Shown here: piece after piece, positions 40,700-41,429 of the stretch
How the letters are laid out: each line of letters starts with the position of its first letter
Numbering within the stretch: the first letter of the stretch is position 1
The notes under the pieces: generated by a model
Seen by the model: only the letters and a program-made list of their open reading frames with translations
The model's database searches: none
What the model was told of the DNA's origin: nothing
Position numbers and translations under genes: made by a program
From: Escherichia coli
GTDB lineage: Bacteria; Pseudomonadota; Gammaproteobacteria; Enterobacterales; Enterobacteriaceae
Direction: 5' to 3' (one strand)
NCBI RefSeq assembly: GCF_016903815.1
Contig: NZ_CP069973.1
DNA length: 64,000 nt

Positions 40700-40706
40700 T
40701 TAAAAT

Positions 40707-40746
40707 AAGTCCTGCGATATATATTAAATTGCAGGACTTATTCATT
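40707..40746 (+). terminator. Rho-independent terminator after fdhD
   Basis: aagtcctgcgatatatattaaattgcaggactt hairpin followed by T-rich tract. Confidence 0.7.
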
Positions 40747-40748
40747 TC

Positions 40749-41429
40749 GTGAATTTTATTATTTTATTTATAAACAAAGCGCGTGTAGTGGCGTTAACGC
40801 CTGCGCTGCAACCTATTGATGGCGTGGCGGTAAGTTATATTGATACTGCCGTGGCGTTGGGTAATACCATTAACGAAATGGATAAATATTACACCCAGGA
40901 AAATTATAAAGACGATGCGTTTGCGAAAGGGAAAACGCTGCACCAGACATTCTTAAAAAATCTTGAAGCCTTTGAACCTGTAGCAGAATCTTATCATGCG
41001 GCGATTCAGGAAATTAACGATAAGCGCCAGCTTGCGGAACTGAAAAATATTGAACAAAGAGAAGGGAAAACATTCCACTACTACTCTCTGGCAGTCATGA
41101 TTTCAGCGAAACAAATTAATAACCTGATTTCGCAAGAGAAGTTTGATGTTGATGCGGCAATGAAGAAAGTCTCTGAACTGGAAACGCTGGTGGCGCAGGC
41201 CAAAGAAGCGGATAAAGGCGGTATGAATTTCTCGTTCATTAATTCGGCAGACCAGTATCAACTCGAGGCTAAAAAATATGTTCGCCGCGTCAGAGATAAA
41301 GTTCCGTACTCTGACTGGGATAAAGAGCAACTTCAGGATGCAAACACAAGCTGGATGGTCGACGACTCATTTCCGCGAGCGTTACGCGAGTACAACGAAA
41401 TGGTCGATGACTATAATAGCCTGCGTTAA
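40749..41429 (+). CDS. yiiG: YiiG-like protein; reading frame opens immediately after fdhD terminator (possibly N-terminally shortened)
   Basis: 226-codon ORF with GTG at 40749, no signal peptide in this frame; first internal ATG gives MDKYYTQENYKDD...; synteny fdhD-yiiG-frvR. Confidence 0.55.
   Translation: MNFIILFINKARVVALTPALQPIDGVAVSYIDTAVALGNTINEMDKYYTQENYKDDAFAKGKTLHQTFLKNLEAFEPVAESYHAAIQEINDKRQLAELKNIEQREGKTFHYYSLAVMISAKQINNLISQEKFDVDAAMKKVSELETLVAQAKEADKGGMNFSFINSADQYQLEAKKYVRRVRDKVPYSDWDKEQLQDANTSWMVDDSFPRALREYNEMVDDYNSLR

Follow-up and report, generated by a model that had tools for sequence, protein, structure and literature searches.

A 5′-truncated yiiG remnant, very probably a pseudogene, at a 478-bp deletion in Escherichia coli

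The window, a 64,000-nt stretch of the E. coli contig NZ_CP069973.1 (RefSeq assembly GCF_016903815.1), carries between fdhD and frvR a 5′-truncated remnant of the lipoprotein gene yiiG, a member of the DUF3829 family. We are confident that this segment is a non-functional pseudogene. Relative to K-12, O157:H7 and CE10 it is short of 478 bp, the loss falling between two copies of an 8-bp direct repeat of which a single copy survives. The truncated gene is already known to standard annotation, as the NCBI pipeline (PGAP) calls it a pseudogene in each carrier inspected, and it is an ordinary object in that respect. The features of the region are as follows.

39866..40699, plus strand: fdhD, intact, 277 aa, the upstream neighbour (ORF list; annotated as fdhD in strain 7/2 and K-12)
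40700..40787, plus strand: kept 5′ part of the native fdhD-yiiG spacer, collinear with K-12 L001 1801-1888 with 3 mismatches
40704..40742, plus strand: terminator-like hairpin after fdhD, 15-bp stem and 9-nt loop, then a U-rich tail (RNA fold)
40788..40795, plus strand: deletion junction, where one copy of the 8-bp direct repeat GTGGCGTT is left; the match to the left flank ends at 40795 and that to the right flank starts at 40788
40788..41429, plus strand: yiiG remnant, codons V139-R351 and stop, frame open, C-terminal three quarters of DUF3829 (collinear with K-12; Pfam; PGAP pseudogene)
40927..41071, plus strand: two 10-bp direct repeats AAGGGAAAAC at 40927-40936 and 41062-41071, both copies and the DNA between them kept in the window
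41457..41481, no strand assigned: REP-like palindrome GTGTCGGATGCG / CGCATCCGACAC, read from the sequence
41485..43233, minus strand: frvR, intact, 582 aa, the convergent downstream neighbour (ORF list; strain 7/2 annotation)

The 478-bp deletion and what it removed

The ORF list and a comparison of annotations identified the locus as the E. coli fdoG-fdhD-yiiG-frvR neighbourhood. The remnant lies between fdhD and frvR, which is the orthologous position, with the same neighbours as in K-12. A K-12 derivative, J53 (locus L001), served as the K-12 YiiG reference. Since a pairwise MAFFT alignment of the window with K-12 misplaced the gap (inside fdhD), the two sequences were instead compared by anchoring on each flank. 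The first 96 bp past the fdhD stop codon (40700-40795) correspond to L001 1801-1896 with 3 mismatches, and 40788-41429 corresponds to L001 2367-3008, which extends from codon 139 of yiiG to its stop codon. These two collinear stretches overlap by GTGGCGTT, and the 478 bp that are missing relative to K-12 are also missing relative to O157:H7 and CE10. Thus, both flanks of the junction are collinear with the intact orthologue while the segment containing the start codon is gone, the arrangement by which a deletion pseudogene is recognized.

The repeat GTGGCGTT occurs at L001 1889 and 2367 in K-12 and at L007 1389 and 1867 in O157:H7; in both cases the copies are 478 bp apart. The upstream copy is in the spacer, 64 bp 5′ of the ATG, and the other spans codons 139-141. 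The match can be extended to GTGnnGTGGCGTT, in which 11 of 13 positions agree. Four 8-mers are common to the spacer and the gene's first 548 bp, so the repeat is not special in itself. Replication slippage and RecA-independent short-homology recombination typically leave such a scar, with a single copy of a direct repeat. The ancestral event was a 478-bp deletion between the two GTGGCGTT copies, with one copy kept, and either replication slippage or RecA-independent short-homology (illegitimate) recombination may have produced it. Deletions between short direct repeats (microhomology) in E. coli offer a close parallel, as here too the end points lie in a perfect 8-bp repeat with one copy kept; unlike in those cases, the scar by itself is what suggests the mechanism.

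In K-12 a 152-bp spacer separates the fdhD stop codon from the yiiG ATG. The deletion took the last 56 bp of this spacer, including the region just 5′ of the ATG (TATATTTATAAGGCAATTAA-ATG in K-12), together with the start codon, the signal peptide and lipobox (LTGC), a Pro/Ala-rich linker and the first ~63 positions of DUF3829. Codons 1-138 of 351 (39%) were lost. Loss of the 5′ third of yiiG in this lineage was one of two alternatives offered in the initial annotation. The deletion itself is borne out, at 39% of the codons plus 56 bp of upstream DNA, but its junction is not near 40745-40750, where it had been expected; we found it at 40788-40795, about 40 bp downstream and inside the ORF. The upstream DNA that was lost would have held the ribosome-binding site and probably the promoter, and the remnant is presumably not expressed. 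The deleted segment (L001 1897-2374) also contains the target gcgcgttatgctgac, which matches the K-12 coding sequence for ...ARYAD...; a MarA ChIP-seq site with this sequence was reported inside yiiG of ETEC H10407 (PMC5684230).

Intact YiiG has 351 aa in K-12, O157:H7 and CE10 alike, each with MKRNLLSSAIIVAIM(S/A)LGLTGC. The K-12 protein starts with MKRNLLSSAIIVAIMSLGLTGC and has a lipoprotein signal with a lipobox, in agreement with the initial annotation, which described YiiG as a lipoprotein of about 350 aa. Aligning K-12 YiiG with the ORF of the window, the check that had been suggested there, gave a match over residues 139-351 rather than the full length, so the 5′ truncation stands. The remnant matches PF12889 (DUF3829) with a score of 250.8 bits (gathering score 26.8; E = 2.6e-74). 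This match covers profile positions 64-285 of 285, compared to 2-285 for K-12 YiiG, which identifies the long form as the one typical of the family. Both the lipoprotein signal peptide with its lipobox cysteine and a complete domain are absent from the ORF of the window. In summary, K-12 yiiG (b3896; YiiG family lipoprotein, PF12889) occupies the same slot between fdhD and frvR, and its codons 139-351 are collinear with the remnant with 9 of 213 amino acids differing; the window differs from it in lacking the 478 bp of upstream DNA, start codon, signal, linker and domain start, and its product would not be expected to be expressed or exported.

A PDB sequence search with K-12 YiiG found no solved relative, and no NCBIfam model matched. 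Our literature search on yiiG identified no study of its function or of the deletion; the gene is mentioned incidentally, as the intragenic MarA ChIP-seq site and among Dan SELEX clones.

The apparent start codon and the putative fdhD terminator

The mechanical ORF list gives a plus-strand ORF at 40749..41429 that encodes 226 aa from a GTG start, as the initial annotation had stated. Codons 1-13 of this ORF (40749-40787, MNFIILFINKARV) are spacer DNA that is unchanged in K-12, where it is non-coding. The nearest upstream in-frame stop codon is at 40725-40727. The reading frame of the 213 remaining codons happens to continue through 39 bp of AT-rich spacer, so an ORF finder runs the frame back to GTG 40749. 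The N-terminal sequence MNFIILFINKARV has neither a lipobox nor a cysteine, and the earlier remark that the ORF lacks a signal peptide was accurate. Judging from the sequence comparison, we conclude that the GTG beside the terminator hairpin is a mechanical start and no true one, intergenic DNA being read in frame.

We found no Shine-Dalgarno-like sequence ahead of either GTG 40749 (TTGCAGGACTTATTCATTTC) or the internal ATG at 40878 (TGGGTAATACCATTAACGAA). A consensus scan found no sigma-70-like promoter in 40600-41600, a result that carries little weight, as the scan also misses the plus-strand yiiG promoter of K-12; the promoter and terminator consensus scans of K-12 returned a single promoter-like match, on the minus strand inside yiiG, and the scan is uninformative for placing the yiiG promoter. 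The initial annotation had considered that a shorter protein might begin at the internal ATG (MDKYYTQ, 40878). With no Shine-Dalgarno sequence, no promoter-like site and the export signal gone, this proposal is not supported.

The hairpin downstream of fdhD pairs 40704-40718 with 40728-40742 (15 pairs). Folding of 40704-40742 gave -19.9 kcal/mol with a z-score of -5.39, and none of 200 shuffled sequences was as stable. The tail 3′ of the stem is UCAUUUCGUGAAUUUUAUUAUUUUAUUU, and a stable GC-containing hairpin is thus followed by a U-rich tract just past the fdhD stop codon. By these properties the hairpin is predicted to be an intrinsic (Rho-independent) terminator of fdhD. It is native to the locus, and K-12 also has it, collinear save for one loop base. 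A simple terminator scan missed this structure because its loop limit was 8. The GTG at 40749 begins 6 nt past the stem, not three bases past the hairpin as originally described.

This ORF offers a lesson for annotation: what an ORF finder lists looks like a plausible gene of 226 aa, yet the homology starts at a deletion scar 39 bp inside it.

Several other features of the neighbourhood were recorded. The REP-like palindrome lies between the convergent yiiG remnant and frvR and is conserved in K-12. Just 3′ of the yiiG stop codon, within 41440-41481, a 6-bp TTTTGG is present in the window and absent from K-12. An Rfam search of 40500-41700 identified no RNA gene and gave two sub-threshold matches at chance level, one to STnc210, a Salmonella sRNA (22.7 bits against a gathering score of 100; 41409-41593, minus strand), and one to a miRNA model on the fdhD terminator hairpin. 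Upstream of fdhD, the gene for a formate dehydrogenase alpha subunit (36622-39672, minus strand) appears as two ORFs of 195 aa and 804 aa split by an in-frame TGA at ~39082-39084, which is the expected selenocysteine codon and no disruption. RefSeq labels this gene fdnG / 'formate dehydrogenase-N', yet its position adjoining fdhD is that of fdoG.

Carriers of the deletion and further decay

Strain 7/2 is 100% identical to the window across 1301 bp around the remnant. This 1301-bp region was matched in 5424 of 5426 complete E. coli genomes; in most of them the match came in two pieces that spanned about 1757-1773 bp rather than 1301 bp. We searched the same genomes with a 44-nt probe spanning the junction, each half of which is too short to match intact genomes. 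Using blastn with a word size of 11, the junction was found in 1467 of the 5426 genomes (27%), once per genome. The megablast count of 940 is an undercount, as ST131-type alleles have two SNPs within the 44-mer, which leaves no exact word of 28 nt. Carriers include Nissle 1917, ABU 83972, ST131, an O2:K1:H4 avian strain, an ST69 strain, pig ETEC strains and O139:H1. Two of the matches are on records labelled as plasmids.

PGAP describes the gene as an 'incomplete; missing N-terminus' pseudogene in each of the eight carriers inspected (7/2, Z142-4, Nissle, O139:H1 W13-16, ST131, EC31, MS57-2 and ST69). The pseudogenes of strain 7/2 (CRT46_RS21740) and Z142-4 (ABXJ21_RS16770) share both the junction and the 642-bp remnant with the window; their PGAP feature starts at the first homologous codon (window 40788) and not at the mechanical GTG.

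Other carriers have lost more. A second, in-frame deletion of 135 bp, bounded by the AAGGGAAAAC repeats, is present in Nissle, ST131 and O139:H1 W13-16, and its junction was found in 692 of the 5426 genomes. The remnants of EC31, MS57-2 and ST69 are annotated as frameshifted, and 1-bp indels were seen directly in EC31 and MS57-2. Nissle, ST131, EC31, MS57-2 and ST69 lack the entire frv operon (frvR, frvX etc.), which the window keeps, and have in its place a carbohydrate-porin gene adjacent to rhaM. The left breakpoint of this replacement is at about window position 41409, inside the last ~7 yiiG codons, which are themselves replaced (L004 3073-4800, L006, L008, L009 and L011). The Nissle 1917 and ST131 pseudogenes, annotated as 'DUF3829 domain-containing protein', therefore share the 478-bp junction with the window but additionally lack the 135 bp between the AAGGGAAAAC copies and have their last ~7 codons replaced. 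Among the forms seen, the window allele is the least decayed. The decay across carriers is the pattern of a dead gene eroding.

Other lesions and copies of yiiG occur in E. coli (hits NZ_CP071436.1 and NZ_CM142663.1). In EcPNK006 an IS1A insertion splits yiiG, and the chromosome of UID2309220013 has, at a different site, an additional gene of the YiiG family with about 84% identity.

Selection, origin and alternative explanations

The remnant frame is open across all 213 codons in the lineage of the window. Its dN/dS was 0.10 against both K-12 and O157:H7, compared to 0.15 between intact alleles. Taken at face value, so low a ratio would suggest purifying selection. We rejected it as evidence of function, since both mosaic recombination and variants in common with intact alleles confound it. 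A SNP table showed that most differences of the remnant from K-12 are common to the intact O157:H7 or CE10 alleles. As these variants are shared with intact alleles and the locus is mosaic, the differences are largely old polymorphism or recombinational imports rather than substitutions that followed the deletion. The dS between the window and K-12 was 0.18 over 213 codons, which is unusually high and fits a recombining region. Compared with L001, L007 and L010 over 40400-41429, the locus looks like a recombination patchwork. The 3′ end of fdhD in the window is nearly K-12/O157-like, with 3-4 differences in 396 bp; the other carriers differ at 11-30 positions.

We consider it very unlikely that the remnant still works as a gene, that is, as a truncated cytoplasmic DUF3829 protein of 226 aa from GTG 40749 or 183 aa from ATG 40878, perhaps made by read-through from fdhD. 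The frame that is open for 226 codons, the strong PF12889 match of 250.8 bits and the dN/dS of 0.10 against intact alleles would all fit such a protein, although the last of these is explained by the variants shared with intact alleles. Neither start codon is preceded by a Shine-Dalgarno sequence or a promoter-like site, the -19.9 kcal/mol terminator hairpin lies directly upstream, and the loss of the signal peptide and lipobox would leave the product in the wrong compartment with the first ~63 domain positions missing. Moreover, the frameshifts, the 135-bp deletion and the 3′ replacement in other carriers are unexpected for a gene under selection. It is still less credible that the short form is ancestral and that the 351-aa K-12 form arose by a 478-bp insertion, a proposal that has the bare length difference in its favour. 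The additional 478 bp encode a signal peptide and the start of the same Pfam domain, which is contiguous in the long form (2-285); a direct repeat flanks the segment and the short form keeps one copy, as after a deletion; and most of these genomes have the long form. An assembly or sequencing artefact of this genome has a negligible chance of accounting for the truncation, given that 1467 independently assembled complete genomes have the identical junction once each and that strain 7/2 is without a single difference over the whole region compared.

Within the explanation that we favour, a deletion that left a dead remnant, the 478-bp loss may have arisen once or several times independently at the same 8-bp repeat. 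We regard repeated origins as the less likely course, though one to be taken seriously. The deletion is found on strongly diverged haplotypes: of the 41 informative sites in the remnant, about 24 distinguish the window type from the B2 type, whose 3′ half resembles intact K-12 more than it does the window. In addition, the 135-bp deletion occurs on both window-type (O139:H1) and B2-type backgrounds, suggesting that repeat-mediated deletions may recur. However, T40814 and T40841, which lie beside the junction, are common to all eight carriers, whereas K-12 and O157:H7 have A and C at these positions. The T/T haplotype is also present on intact alleles such as CE10, which fits one event on that background. 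Haplotypes are mosaic, EC31 and ST69 switching type near 41289, so recombination can explain the diverged 3′ halves. The linked SNPs thus favour a single origin of the 478-bp deletion in a suggestive but not decisive manner. O139:H1 W13-16 is identical to the window at 41 of 41 informative sites, yet it has the 135-bp deletion, which would imply either recurrence of that deletion or a conversion patch of less than about 276 bp.

Loss of YiiG might also have been adaptive in the carrier lineages, which include ST131, Nissle/ST73 and ST69, rich in extraintestinal pathogens, with the locus being a hotspot of repeat-mediated inactivation; in a weaker form of this idea, the open 213-codon remnant would be expressed as a cytoplasmic DUF3829 fragment. 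The presence of the deletion in 27% of genomes, the 135-bp deletion on two backgrounds and the IS1 insertion in another strain are compatible with adaptive loss at such a hotspot, but we hold the proposal to be improbable.

The biological weight of the finding is small, as standard NCBI annotation already marks the pseudogene in every carrier inspected. The presence or absence of the 478-bp and 135-bp segments could serve to mark lineages, setting many B2 and D-type strains apart from those of the K-12, O157 and CE10 type. Should the function of YiiG be established, roughly a quarter of the E. coli sequenced would represent natural knock-outs.
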